From an uncultured Chloroflexia bacterium (GTDB lineage: Bacteria > Chloroflexota > Limnocylindria > Limnocylindrales > CSP1-4): a DNA stretch of 11,189 nucleotides. Below are positions 1 to 11,035 of the stretch, piece by piece (the stretch's first letter is position 1; each line of letters starts with the position of its first letter). The notes under the pieces are model-generated. The model did no database searches. It was not told the DNA's origin and saw nothing but the letters and a program-made list of their open reading frames with translations. A program made the translations under genes and the position numbers. Where the stretch lies: NCBI GenBank assembly GCA_963833225.1, contig CAWHXD010000001.1, positions 1 through 11,189 on the forward strand. The letters run 5' to 3'.

Positions 1-909
1 GACTCGATCGGCGATCCGGTCCGGTGTCAGGCCGAACCGCTCGAGCAGCCAGGCGTTGGGGGCCGATTCGCCCCATTCGTCATCGATTCCGATCGCCTCC
101 ACCCGGCGCGGCTGCGTCCGGGTGACGATCTCCGCGACCAGGCTGCCCAGGCCGCCGACGACCGTGTGCTCCTCGGTCGTCACGACCAGCGGCGCCTCGG
201 ATGCGGCCCCGGCGATCGCGTCGGCATCGACCGGCTTGAGCGACGGGACGTGGAGCACCCCGGCCTCGATGCCGTTTGCGCCGAGGAGCTCGGCGGCGGC
301 CAGGGTGCGGGCGGACTGCTGCCCCGTCGACACGAGCAGGACGTCAGTGCCGCCGCGCAGGCGCACGGCGCGGCCGGGGACGAACTCGTAGTCCGGGGCC
401 ACGATGTCCGAACCGCCCTCGCGACCCAGCCGCAGGTACACCGGGCCGGGCGTCGCCGTTGCCCATCGCACCATCGCGGCACACTCGGTCGCGTCGCCCG
501 GAGCGAGCACCGTCATTCCGGGCATCGCTCGCATGATCGTCAGGTCCTGGACGTCGAGGTGGGTCTTGCCGGTGAAGCCCGTCTGGACGCCGGCGTAGGC
601 GGCGCCGATCTTGACGTTCGCGTGGGTCTGAGCCACGGCCATCCGCACCTGGTCAAGGGCGCGATGGGTGAAGAACACGGCGAACGACGAGAGCCACGGA
701 ACGAAGCCCATGGCCGCCAGGCCGACGGCTGTTCCGACCATTCCCTGCTCGGCGATCCCCATCTCGTAGAAGCGATCCGGATGGACGTTCGCGAACCGGT
801 CGGCGCGCGTCGAGGTGGCCAGGTCGCCGTCGAGAACGAGCACGCGCGGATCCTCCGTCGCGACCTCGATGAGCGTGTCCGCCCACACGTCGCGCAGGGG
901 GCGGGTCAC
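1..909 (-). CDS. Transketolase C-terminal subunit (pyrimidine-binding + C-terminal domains) of a split two-gene transketolase; 3' end lies outside the window
   Basis: Not in the ORF track. Manual translation from GTG at 909 (GTGA overlap with the upstream stop at 906-908) stays open to base 1 (303 codons): MTRPLRDVWADTLIEVATEDPRVLVLDGDLATSTRADRFANVHPDRFYEMGIAEQGMVGTAVGLA...RALDQVR...GFTGKTHLDVQDLTIMRAMPGMTVLAPGD...GPVYLRLGR...SLKPVD...VVTTEEHTVVGGLGSLVAE...GIDDEWGESA. GIAEQ, RALDQVR, GPVYLRLGR and EEH..GGLG are hallmark motifs of this family. Confidence 0.95.
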   Translation of the reverse strand, partial: MTRPLRDVWADTLIEVATEDPRVLVLDGDLATSTRADRFANVHPDRFYEMGIAEQGMVGTAVGLAAMGFVPWLSSFAVFFTHRALDQVRMAVAQTHANVKIGAAYAGVQTGFTGKTHLDVQDLTIMRAMPGMTVLAPGDATECAAMVRWATATPGPVYLRLGREGGSDIVAPDYEFVPGRAVRLRGGTDVLLVSTGQQSARTLAAAELLGANGIEAGVLHVPSLKPVDADAIAGAASEAPLVVTTEEHTVVGGLGSLVAEIVTRTQPRRVEAIGIDDEWGESAPNAWLLERFGLTPDRIADRV

Positions 910-1805
910 GGGACGACCTCCCCGAGCTCGGCGCGGGCGGCCTCGGCCTCGGCCATCGTGGCCACGCGGCTGTGCCACTCGAAGGTGCCCTCGGTGAAGC
1001 TGAAGCCGCGGCCCTTCACGGTTCGCGCGAGGATCGCGGTCGGGACGGCACCCGCCCCGGCGGACCGCGCATCCCCGCAGGCCGCAAGGATCTCGCCCAT
1101 GTCGTGCCCGTCGATCTCGAGCACACGCCAGCCGAACGCTTCGAACGCCTGGCGCACGGCCACCTCGCCGAACGGGTCACGCCGGTCGCCTCGATGTCGC
1201 TCCCCTGGCCGGAGCGGCCAGCCGTACTGCTGCAGGCCGTTGCGGTCGATGATCGCGGTGAGGTTGCCCAGGCCGTACTTCGCGGCCACCGGGATGGCCT
1301 CCCAGGCCTGGCCCTCCTGCATCTCCCCATCGCCCAGCAGGACCCAGGTGTGGTTGTCCAGACCCAGGCGGCGAGCGCCCATCGCCATCCCCACGCCGAT
1401 CGAGAGACCCTGGCCCAACGAGCCGGTGGAGGTGTCGAGACCGGGCAGACGGGTCATGTCGGGATGGCCCTGGAGGCGCGTCCCCGCGGCGTCGAACGTC
1501 CGGAGCTCATCGATCGGGAAGCAGCCGCGGAGCGCCATCGCCACGTACAGCCCGATCGAGGCGTGACCCTTGGACAGGATGAACCGGTCACGCTCGGGCC
1601 AGTCCGGCCTTGCCGGGTCGATCCGGAGCACGCGGAAGTAGAGCGCGATCAGCAGATCCATCGCGGACAGCGGCCCGCCCACGTGACCGGCGCCGGCGCG
1701 GGCAACGCTCTCGATCACCAGCAGCCGTCCGCGCCGGGCGAGCGCCTCGAGGTCCGCGTCGCGGCCTGAAGCCGCCTCGCCGGCAGCCTCGGCCCGGCCG
1801 CTCAT
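906..1805 (-). CDS. Transketolase N-terminal (ThDP-binding) subunit
   Basis: This is the C-terminal 299 aa of track ORF 906..2309. The start is reassigned to ATG at 1805 (ATGA overlap with the iolE-like stop at 1802-1804). Motifs: GHVGGPLS, DRFILSKGHA, LQGHP, STGSLGQGLS, ThDP motif GDGEMQEG...DRNG, IDGHD, TVKGRG, WH. Confidence 0.95.
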   Translation of the reverse strand: MSGRAEAAGEAASGRDADLEALARRGRLLVIESVARAGAGHVGGPLSAMDLLIALYFRVLRIDPARPDWPERDRFILSKGHASIGLYVAMALRGCFPIDELRTFDAAGTRLQGHPDMTRLPGLDTSTGSLGQGLSIGVGMAMGARRLGLDNHTWVLLGDGEMQEGQAWEAIPVAAKYGLGNLTAIIDRNGLQQYGWPLRPGERHRGDRRDPFGEVAVRQAFEAFGWRVLEIDGHDMGEILAACGDARSAGAGAVPTAILARTVKGRGFSFTEGTFEWHSRVATMAEAEAARAELGEVVP

Positions 1806-2689
1806 CGCGCGCTGGCCGGGACGGCCAGCAGCCGCTCCAGGTACTCCCGGTTGGCGCGGGCGGTCTCGGTCGGGTCGCCCGGCGCCGTGTCCTGCTCGAT
1901 GACGTACCAGCCGTCGTAGCCGGCGGCCTGGATGGCCGCGACGACCTCCGGGATCCGCGCGATCCCCTCCCCCAGCGGAGGGAAGATGTAGGCGGCCAGC
2001 GCCTGCCCGAAGCTCCAGCCCTCCGCCTTCGCCCTGGCCAGCACGTCGCCGTCGACGTCCTTGATGTGGACGTGCCGCACGCGATCGGCATACCGCGGCA
2101 GCATGTCGATCGCGGCGCCGCCGCCGTACGCCAGGTGCCCGATGTCCAGGCACCAGCCCACCAGCGTCGGGTCGGTCTCGTCGAGCAGGCGTGCCGTCTC
2201 CACCGGGGTCTCGACGTACGTGCCGACGTGGTTGTGGAACACCAGCTCCATGCCCATCGGCTCGAGGCGCCGGGCGAGCTCGTGCAGGCCGCCGGCCAGG
2301 TTCCGCCACTGAGCGTCGGCGAGGCCCCGCGACTCGTCCACGTGACCCGCCTCGCCCCGGCGGCGGTCGTCGCCGGCCTCCGCGGCGATCAGCCGGGTGC
2401 CGCCGTTGCCCGCCAGGAATCGGGCGATGTCGAGCGCCCGCTCGAGCTCGGCGTCATGCCTGTCGGCGTCGCGAAAGCCGAGACCGACGAACGCGCCCAC
2501 CAGCTCGAGACCACGCGAGCGGAGATCCTTGCCCAGCACCTCGGGGTCGGTCGGCATCGAGGGGCCCCATTCGGTGGCGTCGTACCCTGCCTCGACGAAG
2601 TGGTCCATCGCCTCGCCGTACGGGATCCACGGGAAGACATCGGGGATGTCGGGGTTGTTCCAGTTGACGACGGCCGTTGCGATCCTCAC
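1802..2689 (-). CDS. iolE: IolE/MocC-like myo-inosose-2 dehydratase (xylose isomerase-like TIM barrel, sugar phosphate isomerase/epimerase family)
   Basis: Motifs AGYDATEWG, FHNHVGTYVET, CLDIGHL, HVHIKDVD, PLGEG and GYDGWYVIEQD. The GTG start overlaps the iolD stop (GTGA, 2686-2689), with GGAG upstream. The fold is secure; the exact IolE activity rests on motifs plus adjacency to iolD. Confidence 0.75.
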   Translation of the reverse strand: MRIATAVVNWNNPDIPDVFPWIPYGEAMDHFVEAGYDATEWGPSMPTDPEVLGKDLRSRGLELVGAFVGLGFRDADRHDAELERALDIARFLAGNGGTRLIAAEAGDDRRRGEAGHVDESRGLADAQWRNLAGGLHELARRLEPMGMELVFHNHVGTYVETPVETARLLDETDPTLVGWCLDIGHLAYGGGAAIDMLPRYADRVRHVHIKDVDGDVLARAKAEGWSFGQALAAYIFPPLGEGIARIPEVVAAIQAAGYDGWYVIEQDTAPGDPTETARANREYLERLLAVPASAR

Positions 2690-4575
2690 GCCAGCTCCCT
2701 CCGCTGCCGCCCAACGGCCTGGTCGTATTCCTCACGGGCGGCGCGCACGTCGCCCTGCCCGCTGGCTGCCGCCGGTGGCACGTCCCACCAGCCCTCGTAG
2801 CCCGGGGCGCGCTTGTCCGGGCTGACGTAGACGTGGATCACCGTCGTCCGGTCCGCGGTCCGCGCGGCGGCGATGGCGTCGCGGATCTCCTGCTCCGTGC
2901 GGGCGGTGACCCCGATCGCCCCCATCGCCTCGGCGTGCTTGGCGTAGTCGACCGGCACGTAGCCACCGGAGAGGCGGTTGCGGGCGTGGTCCCGGAATCG
3001 GAGCTCGTTGCCGAACTGGGTGGTCACGCCGACGTTTGCGGCGAGATCCTTGATGCACTGGAAGCCGTGATTGTCGAACACGACGACCGTGATCCGGATC
3101 CCCTCGGCGACAGCCGTGACGATCTCGCTGTTGAGCATCAGGTAGGTCCCGTCGCCGATCGCGACGACCACCTCGCGCTCGGGCTCGGCCATCTTGACGC
3201 CCATGCCCGCCGGGATCTCGTAGCCCATGCACGAGTATCCGTACTCGAGGTGGTAGGCCTTGCTGTCCTCGGGCCGCCACAGCTTGAGCAGGTCGCCGGG
3301 CAGGCTGCCGGCCGCGCACACCACCGTCGCGTGTCCGCCGACCGCGTCGTTGATGATGCCGATCACCTCGGGCTGGGCCATGTCCGCGGTCTCGCCGCTG
3401 GGCGTGCGGTGGTAGTCGACGCGGGCGTCCCACTCCTCCTTGAGGTCGCCGATGCGATCCCGGTACGCCTGGCCCGTCCCTGCGTGGCCCGCCGCGCGCA
3501 GCGACGCCGTCAGCGCGGCGAGCGCCTCCCGTGCGTCCGCGACCATCGGCACGGCGTGCAGCTTGATGGCGTCGAAGCCGTTGACATTGATGCCGACGAC
3601 CGTCGCGTCCGGGTTCTGGAAGATGCTCTTGGACGCCGTGACGAAGTCGCCCAGCCGGCCCCCGATCGAGATGACGAGGTCGGCCTCCTTTGCCAGCCGG
3701 TTGGCCGCCAGACCGCCGTTGGCGCCGATGGGTCCGACGTTCATCGGGTGGTTCCACGGGAGGACGCCCTTGCCGGCCTGGCTCTCGCTGACCGGGATGC
3801 CGAACGCGGTCGCGAACGCATCGAGCGCCGCCTCGGCGCCCGAGTAGATGGCGCCGCCGCCGGCCACGACCAGCGGCCTGGTGGCTGCCTGGATCAGCTT
3901 CGCGACCTGGGCCACGACCTCCGGCTCCGGCAGCGGCCGCCGGATCCGCCACACGCGCCGCTCGAAGAACCGCTCGGGCCAGTCGTACACCTCGGACTGA
4001 ACGTCCTCGGGCAGCGAGATCGTCACCGCGCCGGTCTCCGCGGGATCGGTCAGCACCCGGAACGCATCGGGCAGGCTGGACAGGAGCTGCTCCGGCCGTG
4101 AGATGCGGTCGAAGTAGCGCGACACGGGGCGGAATGCATCCGACGCGGACACGTCGTGCTCGATGGGATGCTCGACCTGCTGGAGGACCGGGTCGGGCAG
4201 GCGGTTGGCGAAATAGTCCGACGGGAACAGCAGGACCGGCAGCCGGTTGACGGTCGCCTGCGCCGCGCCGGTGATCATGTTCGTCGCGCCGGGACCGATC
4301 GAGCTGATGCAGGCGAAGGTCTGCATCCGGTTCCTGTGCTTGGCGTACGCCGACGCCAGGTGGACCTGGGCCTGCTCGTTCTGCGGCCGGTAGTACGGCA
4401 TCTCGCACTCGTCGCCCAGCTCCTCGAGCGCCTGCCCGAGGCCCGCGACGTTGCCGTGCCCGAAGATGCCCCACACCCCGGCGATGAACCGGCTCTGAAC
4501 GCCGTCACGCTCCACGTACTGCTGGGCCATGAACTTGACGATGGCCTGTCCGACCGTCAGGCGAACTGTGCTCAA
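2686..4575 (-). CDS. iolD: 3D-(3,5/4)-trihydroxycyclohexane-1,2-dione acylhydrolase (decyclizing), ThDP-dependent
   Basis: 629 aa with IolD-typical motifs RLTVGQA, IFGHGNVAG, NEQ, SSIGPGATNM, ATVNRLPVLL, PDPVLQQ, DAFRPVSRYFDRI.RPEQL, AAGSLPGDL, YHLEYGYSCMGYEI, GDGTYLM...DNHGF and WWDVP. TTG start with GGAGG (4582-4586) 6 nt upstream. Confidence 0.96.
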   Translation of the reverse strand: MSTVRLTVGQAIVKFMAQQYVERDGVQSRFIAGVWGIFGHGNVAGLGQALEELGDECEMPYYRPQNEQAQVHLASAYAKHRNRMQTFACISSIGPGATNMITGAAQATVNRLPVLLFPSDYFANRLPDPVLQQVEHPIEHDVSASDAFRPVSRYFDRISRPEQLLSSLPDAFRVLTDPAETGAVTISLPEDVQSEVYDWPERFFERRVWRIRRPLPEPEVVAQVAKLIQAATRPLVVAGGGAIYSGAEAALDAFATAFGIPVSESQAGKGVLPWNHPMNVGPIGANGGLAANRLAKEADLVISIGGRLGDFVTASKSIFQNPDATVVGINVNGFDAIKLHAVPMVADAREALAALTASLRAAGHAGTGQAYRDRIGDLKEEWDARVDYHRTPSGETADMAQPEVIGIINDAVGGHATVVCAAGSLPGDLLKLWRPEDSKAYHLEYGYSCMGYEIPAGMGVKMAEPEREVVVAIGDGTYLMLNSEIVTAVAEGIRITVVVFDNHGFQCIKDLAANVGVTTQFGNELRFRDHARNRLSGGYVPVDYAKHAEAMGAIGVTARTEQEIRDAIAAARTADRTTVIHVYVSPDKRAPGYEGWWDVPPAAASGQGDVRAAREEYDQAVGRQRRELA

Positions 4576-4644: not shown

Positions 4645-4658
4645 GGTAAGCGCTTACA
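4645..4658. promoter_or_regulatory. LacI-family operator O1 (gGTAAGCGCTTACA)
   Basis: Perfect 12-bp palindrome GTAAGCGCTTAC (4646-4657) with a central CG, as is typical for LacI/GalR operators. It lies in the AT-richer spacer between divergent iolD and the LacI gene. Confidence 0.85.
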
Positions 4659-4673
4659 CTCGATGATATGCCA

Positions 4674-4702
4674 AATGTAATCGGATACATCGGCGGCTGC
4701 AA
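4674..4702 (-). promoter_or_regulatory. Putative sigma70-type promoter of the iolD-iolE-transketolase operon
   Basis: The minus strand reads TTGCAG (4702-4697), a 17-nt spacer, then TACATT (4679-4674). The predicted start is near 4667, which puts O1 just downstream of it. Confidence 0.6.
4675..4690. promoter_or_regulatory. LacI-family operator O2 (ATGTAATCGGATACAT)
   Basis: Imperfect palindrome (12/16 symmetric) with a central CG at 4682-4683, 31 bp from the O1 centre. It overlaps the predicted -10 box. Confidence 0.7.
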
Positions 4703-4762: not shown

Positions 4763-5863
4763 ATGACGGACGGGCCGCGCGGCCGTCGGCGCCGGCCACA
4801 CCCGACGGGACGCCCCGTGGTGACCATCGAGGACGTGGCCGCCCAGGCGGGCGTCTCGATCGCCACCGTCTCGCGCGTGCTGACCAACGCCAAGGTGGTG
4901 CGCCCCGAGACCCGGAGCCGGGTCGTGGGTGCCGTCGAGGCGCTCGGCTATCGACCCTCGGGCCCCGCCCGCGCCCTCGCCCGGAGTCGGACCCACACGC
5001 TGGGCCTGATCATGACCGACCTCGCCCAGCCCTTCTACGCGGAGCTCACCCGCGCCGTGGAGGCGGCGGCCCGGACCCACGGCTACGCGCTGGTGCTGGC
5101 CAACGGCGCCGGCGACAGCCGGCGCGAGGCGTCGTACCTCGACCTGCTCGCGGAGCGCCGGGTCGACGGCATCCTGGTCGCCTCGTGGGGCATCACGGAG
5201 CGGCACGTCGACTGGCTGGTGCGGGCGCCGGTCGAGGTCGTCCTGGTCTCGTGCCGGGCGCCCGGCGTCACTCTGCCCGGCATCGTGGCGGCCAGCCGCG
5301 ACGGGGCGCGCCTGGCCGCGGAGCACCTGCTCGCGCTGGGCCACCGGCGGCTCGGCGAGGTCACCGGTCCGCCGCACAGCGCCGCGGCGCCGGACCGCCA
5401 CCTGGGCGTGCTCGAGGCGCTCGCGAACGCCGGGATCGCGGCGGACGGGCTCGCGGTCGCCCACTGCGACGGGGACTTCGAGTCCGGCGGGCGGGCGACC
5501 GCCCAGCTGCTCGCGCGGTCGCCCCGGCCGACGGCCGTGCTCTGCTACAACGACCTGGTGGCGGCCGGCGCGCTCAAGGCGGCCCGTGCGGCCGGGTTGT
5601 CGGTACCCGGCGAGCTGAGCGTGATCGGCTTCGACGACGTGCCCCTGGCCCGCATGGTCGAGCCCGCCCTGACCACCGTCGCGCAGCCCGTCGCCGAGAT
5701 GGGCGCCTGGGCGGTGGAGCGGATCCACGCCGCGCTGACGACGCTGCTCGACCCCACCTCCGGGCCCGAGCCGATCGACCCCCAGGTCGTCCGCGGCCCC
5801 GCCGTGGTCGAGGTGCCGTGCCGGCTGGTCGTCCGGGACAGCACGGCACCGCCGCGGGCCTGA
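4763..5863 (+). CDS. LacI/GalR-family transcriptional regulator, probable local repressor
   Basis: HTH TIEDVAAQAGVSIATVSRVL, hinge LGYRPSGPARAL, and sugar-binding domain motifs RVDGIL, AEHLLALGHRR, PTAVLCYND, VPGELSVIGFDD, PALTTVAQP, LVVRDST. The start is uncertain (ATG 4763, or GTG 4817/4820). Confidence 0.95.
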   Translation: MTDGPRGRRRRPHPTGRPVVTIEDVAAQAGVSIATVSRVLTNAKVVRPETRSRVVGAVEALGYRPSGPARALARSRTHTLGLIMTDLAQPFYAELTRAVEAAARTHGYALVLANGAGDSRREASYLDLLAERRVDGILVASWGITERHVDWLVRAPVEVVLVSCRAPGVTLPGIVAASRDGARLAAEHLLALGHRRLGEVTGPPHSAAAPDRHLGVLEALANAGIAADGLAVAHCDGDFESGGRATAQLLARSPRPTAVLCYNDLVAAGALKAARAAGLSVPGELSVIGFDDVPLARMVEPALTTVAQPVAEMGAWAVERIHAALTTLLDPTSGPEPIDPQVVRGPAVVEVPCRLVVRDSTAPPRA

Positions 5864-5911: not shown

Positions 5912-7136
5912 TCAGCCGACCGTGATCGCCACGCGGTCCGGCACGGTCGCCGGCGGCGAGGGGACCCGCACGATGACGGCCAGTCCGAGCGCGAGCATCC
6001 CCAGCACCAGCAGCCAGGCACCGACGACACCCGCGAGCCCGACCACCAGGCCGAGCCCCAGCGGCGCCGAGAAGATCGCGAGACCCGATGCGGCCGGGAG
6101 CCGCGCGCTGGCCAGGACCGGGGTGTCCGGCGCGTGCGCGATGGCGAGGCTCGCGCCCAGCGGGTACGCCGGTGAGATCCCGAGCCCGCCGAGCAGCAAC
6201 CCCAGTCCGGCCAGCGTCTGGTCGACGGCCAGCAGCGTGAGGGCCGCGCCAGCCGCGGCCAGGATCGTGGACGCTCGCAGCACCATCGTTGGCCGCCATT
6301 CGGTCGCGAGACCGGTCGACAGGGCGAGCCGGCCGGCGATCATCCCGGCCACGTACAGCGACGCCAGCCCGGTCGCCCCGACGTCACCGATCCCCGCCCG
6401 GGCCGACACGACCTGCGAGCCCCAGACCACGAACGAGAACTCGGCGCCGATGAGCATGACCATGAACAGCCAGCTCAGCCAGTAGGCACGGGGCAGCCCG
6501 GCCAGGACGGTCTCGCGGGCGGGCGGGCGATCGGCGCTCCGCGCCGCGGGCCGGTCGAGGTCGCGGCGCCGCGGGCCGGTCGAGGTCGGGCGCGGCCGGC
6601 CGGTCGCGGGCCGGCGACGGCGGCAGCGCCAGCGCCAGCACGGCCAGGAACGGCACCGGCGCGAGCAGGCCGAACCACCAGCCCACCCCGGTCGCGGCCG
6701 CCGACAGGACGAGCGGTCCCGCCAGCCCGCCCGCCACCGACCACAGGTTGGCCCGGGTGAGCAGGGTTCCGCCGCGCCGCCCGCCGCCCAGCGCGCTGTT
6801 CACGTGCACCAGCACGCCGCCGATCGAGGCCCCGAACAGGAGCGCCCCGAGCAGGATCAGCAGGATCGAGATCGGGGTGGCCAGCAGCAGCGCGGACAGG
6901 CCCATCAGCACCGTCCACGCCCGGACCGCCGCGCGCGGCCCGATGCGAGCGTTCAGCCGCCCGGACAGCACGCTCGCGCCGACCAGGCCCACCGCCATCG
7001 CCGAGCTGGGCAGGGCCGCCAGCCACGGCGGCACGCCCAGGTCGTGACGCAGGAACGGGGCGATGAACCCGACTGCGTAGATCAGGTAGCCCTCGCATGC
7101 CATCAGCAGGTAGGCCGTCCACGTCAGCAGCGACAA
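5912..7136 (-). pseudogene. MFS transporter split by a +1 frameshift in the central loop (real pseudogene or sequencing error)
   Basis: The N-half (track ORF 6384..7136) has hydrophobic helices and motif-A-like GRLNARIGPR. The C-half (track ORF 5912..6463) extends upstream in its own frame as ...ETVLAGLPRAYWLSWLFMVMLIGAEF. Removing one base near 6563 joins them into a 407-aa protein, a normal 12-TM MFS length. TTG start with GGAG 10 nt upstream; the start is uncertain. Confidence 0.85.
6515..6605 (-). repeat. Degenerate 24-nt tandem repeat encoding DRPAAPDL-like units in the MFS central loop
   Basis: Units: DRPAAPDL (6605-6582), DRPAAP + extra C + DL (6581-6557, 25 nt), DRPAARSA (6556-6533), DRPPAR (6532-6515). 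The exact 23-mer gcgccgcgggccggtcgaggtcg occurs at 6541-6563 and 6566-6588. Confidence 0.85.
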
Positions 7137-7200: not shown

Positions 7201-7214
7201 AGTCATCGCTTACA
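7201..7214. promoter_or_regulatory. LacI-family operator O3 (aGTcAtCGCTTACA)
   Basis: 11/14 match to symmetric TGTAAGCGCTTACA, with an 8-nt right part CGCTTACA identical to O1. It lies in the spacer between the divergent MFS and SDR genes. Confidence 0.6.
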
Positions 7215-7281
7215 TGATGCCGCACCGCGCCCGACGGCCGATCGTTGCTCGGTGCGGGCCGGTGCCCAAGGAGCGGGACCC

Positions 7282-8025
7282 ATGGAACGCATGTCAGAGC
7301 TGTCGGGCCAGGTCGCCCTGGTCACGGGCGCCTCACGGGGCATCGGCCTCGAGCTCGCCCGCGCGCTCGCCCGAGCCGGCGCCACCGTCCTGGCCGGCGT
7401 CCGCCACCTGGAGCATGCGCCGGCGGGCGAGGACGGCGCGATCCGGCCGCTGGTGATGGACGTCCTCGACATCGAGGCGACCCGGCGGGCGATCGACCGC
7501 GCGGTCGCGGAGCACGGGCGGCTGGACATCCTCGTCAACAACGCCGGGATCGGCGCGGAGCACGATCCGCTCGACGTCACCGAGGCGGATTGGGACACCC
7601 TGGTCGATGTCAACCTCAAGGGCGCGTTCTTCACGACCCAGTCGGCCGCCCGGCACATGCTGGATCGCGGGTACGGCCGGGTGATCATGATCAGCTCCCA
7701 GGCGAGCCTGGTGGGGCTGCCGCGGTCGGCCGTGTACTGCGCGGCCAAGGCCGGGCTCAACGGGCTGGTCCGCTCGCTCGCGATCGAATGGGGCGCCCGG
7801 GGGGTGACCGTCAATGCGGTGGCGCCGACCTGGATCTACACGCCCGGCACGGCCGATCGCCTCGACGATCCGGAGTTCCTGCGGGGTGTCCTGGCCCGCA
7901 TCCCGGCCGGCCGGATCGGATCGACCGACGATGTCGCGGCGGCCGTCAGCTACCTCGCCTCGCCGGCGGCGGGCCTGGTCACGGGCACGGTGCTTTCGGT
8001 CGACGGGGGGTGGACCGCCCAGTGA
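7282..8025 (+). CDS. Classical short-chain dehydrogenase/reductase (gluconate 5-dehydrogenase/KduD-like), probably NADP(H)-preferring
   Basis: Motifs TGASRGIG, LDILVNNAG, VNLKG, ISS, YCAAK, VNAVAPT, RIPAGRIG and VTGTVLSVDGGWTAQ. The start is placed at ATG 7282, with AAGGAG (7268-7273) 8 nt upstream. Arg rather than Asp after beta-2 (LAGVR) suggests NADP(H). The substrate is unknown. Confidence 0.9.
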   Translation: MERMSELSGQVALVTGASRGIGLELARALARAGATVLAGVRHLEHAPAGEDGAIRPLVMDVLDIEATRRAIDRAVAEHGRLDILVNNAGIGAEHDPLDVTEADWDTLVDVNLKGAFFTTQSAARHMLDRGYGRVIMISSQASLVGLPRSAVYCAAKAGLNGLVRSLAIEWGARGVTVNAVAPTWIYTPGTADRLDDPEFLRGVLARIPAGRIGSTDDVAAAVSYLASPAAGLVTGTVLSVDGGWTAQ

Positions 8026-8044: not shown

Positions 8045-8914
8045 CTAGCCGGACGGCGGCGGTGCTTCAGGCTCGGCAGAGGCGGTGGACGCCTGCAGCT
8101 CGTCGAGCTCGCGCGACAGATCCTCCAGCTCCTCGCCGCCACCCATCAGGCCGAGCAGCTCGTTCATGCCGACCTCGCCGCGCTTGAACACGCCGAGGCT
8201 CTGGCCGTGGCTCAGGATCGTGAACTTGTCCCCCACCGGCAGCGCGTGCTGCACGTTGTGGGTGATGAAGATCACTGCGAGTCCACGCGACCTGGCCCGG
8301 ACGATGTGTCGCAGCACAATCGCGGCCTGCTTGACCCCGAGCGCTGACGTCGGTTCGTCAAGGATCAGGACACGGGCGCCGAAGTACTCGGCACGGGCAA
8401 TGGCCAGCGTCTGGCGCTCTCCGCCCGACATCGTCCCGACCAGCTGGCTGGTGTCGCGGACCTCGATCCCGATCTCACGCATGTGCTCCTGGGCGGTACG
8501 GTCCGCGTACGCCATGTCGAACCGCCGGAACGGCCCGCGACCCTTCGTCGGCTCGTTGCCCAGGAAGAAGTTGCGGCTGACGCTCATCAGCGGCAGGACG
8601 GCAAGATCCTGGAACACGGTCGCGATCCCGTGCGACTGGGCGTCGTGCGGCGAGGACAGGCTGACCGGGTGGCCGTCGATGAGCAGCTGGCCGTCGTCCG
8701 GTCGGTGGACGCCGGACAGGGTCTTGATCAGCGTCGACTTGCCGGCTCCGTTGTCGCCCAGGAGGCAGTTGACCTCGCCGGCCTTGACGGCGAGCGACAC
8801 GTCCTTGAGCGCCACCACGCGCCCGAAGTACTTGGAGATGCTCCGCGCCTCGAGCACCGGGGTGTCGGAGGCGGCGGCCGAGGTGTCGGAGGCGGCGGAG
8901 GGTGCGGTCGTCAT
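8045..8914 (-). CDS. Sugar ABC transporter ATP-binding protein (single nucleotide-binding domain)
   Basis: C-terminal 289 aa of track ORF 8045..9373; ATG at 8914 overlaps the permease stop (ATGA, 8911-8914). Walker [11 protein letters not shown]-loop VFQD, signature MSGGERQ, Walker B LILDEPT, H-loop ITHN. Confidence 0.95.
8861..8898. repeat. In-frame 21-nt-period duplication in the ATPase N-terminal tail
   Basis: ggtgtcggaggcggcgg at 8861-8877 and 8882-8898, encoding [13 protein letters not shown]. Confidence 0.8.
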
Positions 8915-9981
8915 GATCGGGCTCCCGAGGCGCGGCGCAGGATCCAGTTGTTCACCAGGGCGGCGACGAGCAGGAGGGCGCCGAGGACGAACGCGTACCA
9001 ATCGGAGTTGAAGCCCGGTACGAAGAAGATGCCGAGCTGCGTCACGCCGAGGATGAACGCGCCGAACGCTGACCCGAGCGCGGAGCCGTACCCGCCGGTC
9101 AGCAGCGTCCCGCCGATGACCGCGGTGATGATCGCCTCGAACTCCTTGCCGGTGCCGCGCAGGACGTCGGCGTTTCCGACGCTCAGGACCTGGATGCAGG
9201 CAAACAGCGCGGCCGACGCCGCGGTCGCCATGAACAGCAGGATCTTCACGCGATTCACGGGAACGCCGATGTTCCGGGAGGCTTCCTTCGATCCGCCGAC
9301 CGCGAAGATCCAGTTCCCGAATCTCGTCCGCAGCAGGATCCAGGTCGAGATGCCGACGACGGCGATCCACCACACGAGCTCGATCTTGAAGTCACCGCCT
9401 TCGATCGTGAACAGGACGACGTTGAACAGCTTCGAGATGGGGTCGTCCGCGGCCGCCGTACCGACCCCGCTGACGATCGTCTGGCCGTTCGAGACCAGCC
9501 TCGTCAGGGCGAGGCCGGCGCCCCGGAGCATGTACAGGGAGCCGAGGGTCACGATGAATGAGGGCAGGCCGGTCCGCACGACGATGTAGCCATTGAGGGC
9601 GCCGACGGCCAGGGCGAACGCGAAGGTGATGACGAGTCCGAGCCACAACGGCAGGCCGAACTGGGTGATCGAGAGGCCGAGGATCAGGCCGGCCGCGCCG
9701 ACCATCGAGCCGATCGAGAGGTCGAACTCGCCCGCGATCATCAGCAGGGCGACGGTGGCGCCGAGGATCCCGACCTGGGCCGCGACCTCGATGTAGGCCG
9801 CAAACCCCTGCCAGGACATGAAGCCCGTGCCGACGGTGAAGCCGGTGAGGGCCCAGAAGACCACGAAGATGAGGATCGCCCCGACGATCGACCCGAACTC
9901 GGGCCTCGTCAGCAGCTGGCGAAGGGGACTCGCCCGGCGGAGCCGCTGGGCCTCGGAGGCAGTGCCATCGACCGTCGTCAT
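8911..9981 (-). CDS. Sugar ABC transporter permease (RbsC/BPD_transp_2 family)
   Basis: Hydrophobic 356 aa with [63 protein letters not shown] lies upstream of the ATG. Confidence 0.95.
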
Positions 9982-10051: not shown

Positions 10052-11035
10052 CTAGCGGGTGGTACCCGTGTTTGCCTGGACCGTTGCGACGTTGTCCTTG
10101 GTAACGAAACCCGGGCCGGTAGCGACCGGCTGGCCGCCACCCGGCATGAGGCCGTAGAGGTGGTACAGGGTGAGGAACGTGATCGGCAGGTACCCCTGGA
10201 GGTACTGCTGCTGGTCGATCGCGAACAGCATGGAGCCGTCGGAGATGGCGGCGAGGACGTCCTGCGAAAGGTCGAAGGTGCCGACCTTGATCGTGGTGTT
10301 GCCCATCTGCTTGAGGGCGGCGATCGTCGGCGTCGAGCCGGTCGGGCCGAGGGCCATGACGGTGTCGATCGTCGGGTCGGCCGTGAGGGCCGCGGCGATC
10401 TTCTGCTGCGCGGTCGTCGGATCCTTCAGGTCGACCTGGAGGACGGTCGACGTGCCGGGGGCGAACCCTTCGGCAAAGCCGTTGCAGCGGGCATCGAGGC
10501 CGGCGTTACCGACCTCCTGGTTGACGCAGATCGCGTTCTTGCCGCCAGCCGCGGCCATGCGCTCGCCGGCCGCCTTGCCGGCCTGCGCCTCATCCTGTCC
10601 GACGTGGGTCAGGATGCCGAGCGCCTTGTACGCGTCGGAACCGGAGTTCGCGGAGATCACCGGAATACCTGCGGTGATGCACTTGGTGACGCTCGGGCCG
10701 AGCGCCGTGGCATCCGGAAGCGAGATGACGAGGCCGGACGGCTTCTTGGCGCAGGCAGCGTCAATCAGCTGGCCCATCTTGACCATGTCGAAGGTGTCGG
10801 GGGCGCTGTAGTTGGCCGTCACGCCCATGTCCTTGGCGGCCTGCACCACGCCGTTCTTGAAGATCGACCAGAACGGATCCGAAGCCTGGCCGTGGGTCAC
10901 GACCTCGATGTCGATGCCGGCGCGGTCACTCGACCCGCCGCCACCGCCGCTCGGCGCCGGCGTCGCCGAGTTAGAGCAGGCGGACGCGGCGAGCGCGACC
11001 GCTGCCAGGCCAATCGCCCATTTGCTGAACTTCAT
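10052..11035 (-). CDS. Sugar ABC transporter substrate-binding lipoprotein (periplasmic binding protein type 1), probably inositol/cyclitol-binding
   Basis: Signal peptide with lipobox LAASA-C20 and a flexible [14 protein letters not shown] linker. Motifs [35 protein letters not shown] and [12 protein letters not shown]. Strong SD GGAGGAG upstream. The ligand is inferred from context. Confidence 0.93.

Follow-up and report, generated by a model that had tools for sequence, protein, structure and literature searches.

The transketolase encoded at one end of an 11,189-bp stretch of DNA from an uncultured soil bacterium of the Chloroflexia (GTDB lineage Limnocylindrales; CSP1-4) is, with high probability, a dedicated and remodelled enzyme of an inositol pathway. 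The stretch, called the window below, is the entire contig C1 of an assembly of 3.89 Mb (71% G+C, 86% complete). In the window the enzyme is split over two genes, tktN and tktC, which share an operon with iolD and an iolE-like gene. Canonical myo-inositol catabolism of the Bacillus subtilis type proceeds through IolG, IolE, IolD, IolB, IolC, IolJ and IolA. The best single hypothesis that we can offer, and a tentative one, is that the split transketolase would cleave 2-deoxy-5-keto-gluconate into a C2 and a C4 unit.

We defined the genes from a list of open reading frames (ORFs) and from family scans (Pfam, NCBIfam), which place iolD, the iolE-like gene, tktN and tktC in this order on the minus strand. 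The iolD gene (2686-4575, 629 aa) encodes a thiamine diphosphate (ThDP)-dependent trihydroxycyclohexane-1,2-dione hydrolase that exceeds the equivalog cut-off of TIGR04377 (878 bits versus 715) and spans positions 1-615 of the 616 in the model. The product of the iolE-like gene (1802-2689, 295 aa) is a TIM barrel of the xylose isomerase fold (PF01261). Its full-length alignment to TIGR04379 stays below the equivalog cut-off (209.8 bits versus 290), and it outscores both other IolE-like genes of the genome that were scanned (188.1 and 147.2 bits), a comparison that covers three of four copies, the fourth being at C17:120965-121870. Probably this protein is an inosose dehydratase. The transketolase follows as a ThDP-binding N-terminal subunit (tktN, 906-1805, 299 aa; PF00456, E 2.6e-51) and a C-terminal subunit with the pyrimidine-binding and C domains (tktC, 1-909, 303 aa; PF02779 and PF02780), so all three transketolase domains are present across the pair.

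The three 4-nt stop/start overlaps that the earlier note had described are all readable on the minus strand: GTGA at 2689-2686 between iolD and the iolE-like gene, ATGA at 1805-1802 between the latter and tktN, and GTGA at 909-906 between tktN and tktC. The note had also listed iolB, iolC, iolJ and iolA as missing from the window, and indeed none of them was found among its called genes in the family scans. The tktC gene runs off the end of the contig about 10 aa short (orthologues have 310–315 aa). Because iolG comes next after tktC in relatives (14 of 14 metagenome loci with at least 67% identity and at least 2.5 kb downstream), the operon most likely continues into iolG just past the contig end. 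Orthologous loci in three genomes of the same genus are arranged as substrate-binding protein (SBP), permease and ATPase, then a short-chain dehydrogenase (SDR), a membrane protein, and iolD, iolE, tktN, tktC and iolG; two of the three also have the LacI gene found in the window. The nearest named homologues are from metagenome-assembled genomes (MAGs) of Chloroflexota.

The linkage of this transketolase to iol genes extends well beyond the window. In a set of 80 metagenome loci, whose TktC is 60–94% identical to that of the window, an iol gene adjoins the transketolase in 66. In the other 14 loci the flanking sequence is shorter than 2.3 kb on both sides, whereas an iol gene is present in every locus (40/40) whose flank reaches 3 kb on either side. 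These counts are descriptive, since kin are not independent. In a quick maximum-likelihood search, the window's TktC fell into a clade of nine rows (SH-aLRT 97), all of them iol-linked. We also surveyed 31 genomes of the genus for an iol-type transketolase, defined by at least 65% identity. It was present in 16, all of which are iolD-positive and 15 of which have iolB, and in none of the six iolD-negative genomes. In six genus genomes the iolD of the transketolase operon is the sole iolD found. The earlier note had proposed a neighbourhood check for co-occurrence with iolD and iolE; linkage to an iol gene is seen in all loci with sufficient flank and in all clade rows.

An alignment of the window TktC with 86 C subunits from the fetched loci (87 rows in total) separated these proteins into 52 class 1 rows, 28 class 2 rows including the window and 7 unassigned rows. 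Class 1 is defined by the canonical substrate-site His and the GEDG motif, so His and Asp are found in 52 of 52 class 1 rows by definition. In class 2, position 105 carries Tyr in place of His in all 28 rows, position 113 is never Asp (Thr in 19, Ala in 5, Ser in 2, Gly and Asn in 1 each), and a Lys is gained at position 115 in 23. The window protein bears Tyr105, Thr113 and Lys115 (motif G-F-T-G-K) and therefore lacks both canonical residues. From an alignment with the human enzyme, position 105 presumably matches the His that contacts the substrate phosphate (E. coli 461, human 416), and position 113 the GEDG Asp, to which a hydroxyl of the substrate binds (E. coli 469, human 424).

Other parts of the active site are conserved. 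Arg6, Ser33, Glu54, His117 and Arg163 are each kept in 28 of 28 class 2 rows; Arg6, Ser33 and Arg163 are presumably the Arg/Ser/Arg of the phosphate site (E. coli 358, 385 and 520). In TktN, His41, His81, His114 and His278 are invariant among 22 sequences, and there are two class-specific changes, Ser to Pro at position 45 and Arg to Asp at position 105. Glu54 and these His residues of the two subunits presumably correspond to the cofactor-activating Glu and the catalytic His residues of the E. coli enzyme. Judged by these alignments, class 2 retains the ThDP machinery and both phosphate-site arginines. Its pocket may have been rebuilt for an anion at a shorter distance from ThDP than that of a phosphate ester, and a carboxylate would fit.

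A canonical full-length transketolase with the motifs THDS...GEDGPTHQ is encoded elsewhere in the genome (C7:254389-256378). It is split over two frames, likely by an indel, and the multiple frameshifts of the assembly, this one included, may be assembly errors. Given this separate canonical enzyme and the class 2 changes in the substrate site, the window transketolase is best read as a specialist within a class of its own, class 2, and not as the housekeeping enzyme of the pentose-phosphate pathway. The earlier note had proposed a split transketolase dedicated to the inositol pathway, and the iol linkage of its orthologues, the altered substrate site and the separate canonical transketolase all agree with that proposal.

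Class 2 is not confined to inositol operons. The genome encodes two more class 2-like split transketolases, at C7:311346-313227 and at C8:949039-951244, the latter preceded by a gene for a 122-aa cupin and by a Liv-type ABC importer. Cultured Bacillales have them as well, namely Lysinibacillus (L027), Salinicoccus (L028) and Psychrobacillus (L029). The Lysinibacillus cluster contains a LacI gene, two Zn-dehydrogenases resembling idonate-5-dehydrogenase and a succinate-semialdehyde-type aldehyde dehydrogenase (ALDH), and the Salinicoccus cluster a TRAP transporter, Zn-dehydrogenases, an Fe-dependent alcohol dehydrogenase and a lactaldehyde-type ALDH. These Bacillales clusters point to acid sugars and would fit a general acid-sugar role of the class; taken together, they suggest that culturable strains have an acid-sugar pathway yet to be characterised.

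The kinase step of the canonical pathway has no evident counterpart in this lineage. IolC did not exceed its cut-off anywhere in the genome (best match 165.8 bits versus 300, at 86% completeness), in any of the 31 genus genomes, or in any of five other genomes with iol-linked homologues, and no IolJ was identified in the clusters that we read. The isomerase step is covered: iolB, which according to the earlier note would have to come from outside the window, is present twice, both times on contig C8 (289 and 285 bits versus the TIGR04378 cut-off of 205).

Behind each of the two iolB copies lies a divergent transaldolase-like (TAL) gene (regions C8:611546-615244, with the TAL gene at C8:613153-614292, and C8:788492-790376). 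The TAL proteins score 113 and 102 bits against a cut-off of 367 and retain the context of the Schiff-base Lys. In one of the pairs mmsA/iolA comes next (603 bits versus 448.5), and the other iolB copy is part of an IclR-iolD-iolB-TAL-iolG-iolE cluster. The TAL gene is a candidate for a transaldolase-type bypass of IolC and IolJ.

We observed a second LacI/iolD-iolE-tktN-tktC operon on the same contig (C8:600459-606889), whose proteins are 69–78% identical to those of the window. Two apparent frameshifts interrupt this operon, one in iolE after aa 218 and one in tktC at about aa 280, and its downstream neighbours are an ABC importer of the RbsB type, another IolE-like gene and iolG. The genome also contains a phosphoketolase gene.

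A wider sample of the phylum comprised 151 genomes, 24 of them iolD-positive, that is 23 besides the present one. Among these 23, IolC exceeded the cut-off in eight, a class 2 transketolase was matched in three and a TAL gene in three. One of the three class 2 matches adjoins iolD and two (53% identity) lie elsewhere; a single genome (G126) has both a TAL gene and a class 2 match. No genome of the 23 combines IolC with a class 2 transketolase or a TAL gene. Together with the lack of IolC in the 31 genus genomes, this fits the anti-correlation with iolC that the earlier note had suggested checking, albeit in small numbers. Ten of the 23 have none of the three enzymes, and four of these ten are complete genomes from one genus with two iolD genes each. 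Further lower inositol pathways may exist.

How the transketolase could be connected to IolB is best seen in more distant relatives. In the group of loci below 67% identity, the cluster order is iolD-(iolE)-tktN-tktC-(GFO)-iolG-iolB, with regulator and importer genes behind it. Where at least 2.5 kb of downstream sequence is available, 16 of 18 loci have iolB beside the transketolase, and all 11 loci with at least 3 kb upstream have iolD; a TAL gene or an IolC-like gene was seen in none of the neighbourhoods of this group that were read. One of the IolB proteins passes TIGR04378 for 5-deoxy-glucuronate isomerase (260 bits versus 205), and its cluster ends in an ALDH of the lactaldehyde/GapN/sulfoacetaldehyde type. 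Likewise, two loci from MAGs of named phyla (L021 and L024) unite iolG, iolB, iolE, an IolD or IolD-like gene and the transketolase in one operon, and their genomes contain neither an IolC above the cut-off nor a TAL gene at E<=1e-20. As far as gene content tells, no enzyme other than the transketolase that could break a carbon-carbon bond after IolB is visible in these lineages. The co-operonic iolB without a kinase, aldolase or transaldolase nearby supports a transketolase that acts after IolB. A further iolD-tkt-iolB cluster (L146:5213-20902) is accompanied by an AraC regulator, an MFS transporter, a phosphodiesterase, a phospholipase C, an IlvD/Edd dehydratase and a GMC oxidoreductase with a protein similar to gluconate-2-dehydrogenase subunit 3; these flanks suggest release of inositol from phosphoinositol lipids.

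We propose the following route. IolG, IolE and IolD would open the inositol ring to give 5-deoxy-glucuronate, which IolB, encoded elsewhere in the genome, would isomerise to 2-deoxy-5-keto-D-gluconate. This compound has the D-threo diol and the free CH2OH-CO terminus that transketolase donors share, and it can be regarded as a carboxylate analogue of xylulose 5-phosphate. The split transketolase would shift its C1-C2 ketol unit onto glyceraldehyde 3-phosphate, yielding xylulose 5-phosphate, and the same cleavage would release (R)-3-hydroxy-4-oxobutanoate (D-malate semialdehyde). Xylulose 5-phosphate could be recycled through the phosphoketolase or the pentose-phosphate pathway, and no kinase would be required. 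This branch would run beside or jointly with the TAL enzyme encoded after iolB, which would split 2-deoxy-5-keto-gluconate into a C3 compound and malonate semialdehyde, the latter for MmsA/IolA.

Several observations weigh against a C2 + C4 cleavage of 2-deoxy-5-keto-gluconate. No dehydrogenase for the proposed C4 aldehyde is linked to the operon in this genus. We detected only four ALDH-family genes in the genome, none of them close to the cluster-linked ALDHs of other lineages, and found neither an archaeal-type GAPDH nor a tartrate/D-malate dehydrogenase above the cut-off there. (A single LarA-family gene, at C19:423347, has no visible iol link, and MMSDH-family genes occur in five of five comparison genomes, hence they do not discriminate.) The proposed donor keeps its C4 hydroxyl, so loss of the Asp that binds it is not obviously expected. 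Nine iolD-positive genus genomes have no iol-type transketolase. The TAL gene, on the other hand, is present in all 31 genus genomes and could replace IolC and IolJ alone, and within the genus iolB is never found inside the transketolase operon and is paired with the TAL gene instead.

A further point of this kind comes from the clusters that are closest to the window outside the genus (L015 and L119, with L113, L123 and L130), in which an IolC-like kinase (258 bits versus 300) and a LacD-like aldolase accompany the transketolase. These clusters start with iolD, a sugar aminotransferase, the IolC-like kinase and iolB and continue with LacI-tktN-tktC-iolG and a second iolB; the LacD-like aldolase was read in L119, and L015 has an unassigned ORF at that position. 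Such a gene set suggests a route for amino-cyclitols with two branches, one through kinase and aldolase and the other through the transketolase.

The genome search suggested in the earlier note gave a mixed picture: iolB and mmsA/iolA were found and IolC did not exceed its cut-off, but a TAL gene follows both iolB copies and no enzyme for the C4 aldehyde is linked. The same is true of the bypass of kinase and aldolase that the note had put forward. The missing IolC and the iolB genes within the operons of other lineages speak for it, but the substrate is a prediction and the TAL gene could provide the bypass by itself.

This gene is also at the centre of an alternative that we regard as rather doubtful, in which transketolase and TAL enzyme are partners. 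The TAL enzyme would cleave 2-deoxy-5-keto-gluconate into malonate semialdehyde and a C3 compound, and the class 2 transketolase would recycle acceptors on another ketose, either one that the TAL reaction yields or a sugar-phosphate analogue bearing a carboxylate, in a shuffle resembling the pentose-phosphate pathway. The pairing of both iolB copies with a TAL gene, once with mmsA behind it, and the retained Schiff-base Lys context are consistent with such a division of labour. So are one locus (L109) that unites iolB, the TAL gene, iolD, iolE, transketolase and iolG in one cluster, and a genome (G018) with the transketolase and transaldolase sets fused. Moreover, a different type of class 2 transketolase, orthologous to the one at C8:949039-951244 and with a small cupin ahead of it, adjoins a TAL gene and MmsA in two loci (L019 and L020), and the same neighbourhood is seen by coordinates in the genus genomes G010, G001 and G046. 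Both the single cluster and this second transketolase type also tell against a transketolase that does the cleavage on its own, and the arrangements hint that the two enzymes cooperate rather than compete. However, a TAL gene lies near the transketolase in none of the 18 loci of the group below 67% identity and in 1 of 80 loci overall, the L021 and L024 genomes have none at the threshold given above, and we could not draw up a concrete reaction scheme that requires both enzymes.

It is still less likely that the transketolase operons serve another cyclitol, such as an inosamine or rhizopine-like compound, a methyl-inositol or another stereoisomer, with the transketolase cleaving a variant ring-opened ketose. 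The periplasmic binding protein encoded in the window (10052-11035, minus strand) is related to the rhizopine (inosamine) binding protein, with a score of 313 bits that misses the NF052284 cut-off of 420, the closest non-genus clusters include the sugar aminotransferase, and there are three iolD paralogues in the genome, whose two paralogous transketolase operons differ in their transporters. Yet the operon's iolD is the only one in the six genus genomes mentioned above, its product is an IolD by the equivalog cut-off, and after an aminotransferase or dehydrogenase step the chemistry would converge on the same inosose. We consider it very improbable that an ordinary pentose-phosphate paralogue is merely co-regulated with the inositol genes for extra sugar-phosphate flux. 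In favour of such an enzyme are the retained ThDP residues, catalytic His residues and pair of phosphate-site arginines, as well as the NCBIfam transketolase models that match each half, TktN as well as TktC. Against it stand the strict iol linkage, the change of His to Tyr and the lost Asp at substrate-contact positions in 28 of 28 class 2 rows, and the canonical transketolase encoded elsewhere.

A broader scheme can be imagined, which we think somewhat unlikely as a whole. Class 2 split transketolases, TAL enzymes and cupin isomerases (IolB and the small cupins) might together make up a phosphate-free version of the non-oxidative branch of the pentose-phosphate pathway, with keto-acids such as 2-deoxy-5-keto-gluconate in the place of xylulose 5-phosphate.

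Dedicated catabolic split transketolases are known from two other pathways, SqwGH acting on sulfofructose and AptAB acting on apulose 4-phosphate, and SqwGH cleaves a non-phosphorylated ketose that bears another anionic group. The window enzyme shares with them a two-subunit transketolase inside a catabolic operon, a likeness of operon logic, and differs in the proposed substrate and pathway. Among solved structures the nearest is that of the Carboxydothermus hydrogenoformans split transketolase (PDB 6YAJ/6YAK), which the C subunit matches at E 2.5e-76. It has the same two-gene architecture but the canonical His and GEDG, in contrast to Tyr105 and G-F-T-G-K in the window enzyme. For the TAL gene on contig C8, sulfofructose transaldolase (BmSF-TAL, PDB 8BC3/8C4I) offers an analogy, as it transfers a C3 unit from an anionic non-phosphorylated ketose; the similarity is distant, with weak matches at E ~1e-6. 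Compared with the canonical iol pathway, the system retains an IolD that passes its model, an IolE-like protein in the operon, an IolG-like protein in the operons of relatives, and IolB and MmsA/IolA in the genome, whereas IolC does not exceed its cut-off and a transketolase and a TAL gene are found in the clusters instead. The earlier note knew of no described inositol pathway of this kind; in agreement with this, no paper that describes inositol catabolism with a transketolase or transaldolase step came up in the searchable full-text literature, outside subscription journals and supplementary files. One paper proposes an alternative aldolase and not a transketolase (PMC13311982).

The remaining genes of the window concern regulation and transport. 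Divergent from the iolD operon lies a gene for a LacI-family repressor (4763-5863, plus strand; PF00356 and PF13377), whose position is kept in genus orthologues. The 187-bp spacer between iolD and lacI contains two palindromes identified as candidate LacI-type operators, GGTAAGCGCTTACA (O1, 4645-4658), which has one mismatch to a perfect 14-bp palindrome, and TGTAATCGGATACA (O2, 4676-4689). The palindrome scan revealed a third candidate operator at 7201-7214, ahead of the SDR gene. Three LacI-type palindromes with up to three mismatches compare with 0.07 expected, and three were reached in 0 of 200 shuffles. The LacI-controlled promoter predicted in the earlier note is supported by the divergent gene and the two palindromes in the spacer. 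Both marks of a LacI regulon, the helix-turn-helix LacI domain and a candidate palindromic operator in the target promoter, thus appear to be present. The SDR gene (7252-8025, plus strand), which resembles GolD, DthD, KduD and gluconate-5-dehydrogenase in family scans and is kept beside the operon across the genus, probably belongs to the same regulon.

Three minus-strand genes encode the parts of a sugar ABC transporter: the ATPase (8045-8914; PF00005, start picked by GC3), a putative permease (8911-9981) and the binding protein discussed above. The permease is named by its position between the other two, where its orthologues also sit between SBP and ATPase. A membrane-protein gene (5948-7136, minus strand) has its frame broken near 6559-6597, as tblastn with an intact orthologue gives two frames. 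The orthologue in the genus genome G010 is a single ORF of 382 aa, and contigs of related salt-marsh strains do not have 25 nt at window position 6541; the break could be either a frameshifting insertion or an assembly error. Contigs from four DNA runs that were placed on the window showed strain variation only, and no RNA run was listed as containing the window.

Inositol is a major carbon source derived from plants and soil, and its bacterial catabolism is, to our knowledge, considered solved, with the IolG-E-D-B-C-J-A route and one Thermotoga variant. If the proposed transketolase step is real, it would constitute a new lower inositol pathway, one that spares the ATP of IolC and retains all six carbons, which would end up in pentose phosphate and a C4 acid. 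The small set of transketolases known to act on non-phosphorylated anionic ketoses would grow as well. The class 2 signature (His replaced by Tyr, the GEDG Asp lost and, in most rows, a Lys gained) could serve as a marker for re-annotating thousands of genes now labelled 'transketolase', and the class 2 enzyme as a natural scaffold for biocatalysis with keto-acid donors. Should the phosphate-free pathway outlined above exist, several bacterial phyla could use inositol and other acid sugars as fuel with no need for a kinase, gaining pentose phosphate and a C4 acid (D-malate semialdehyde) rather than losing carbon as CO2.

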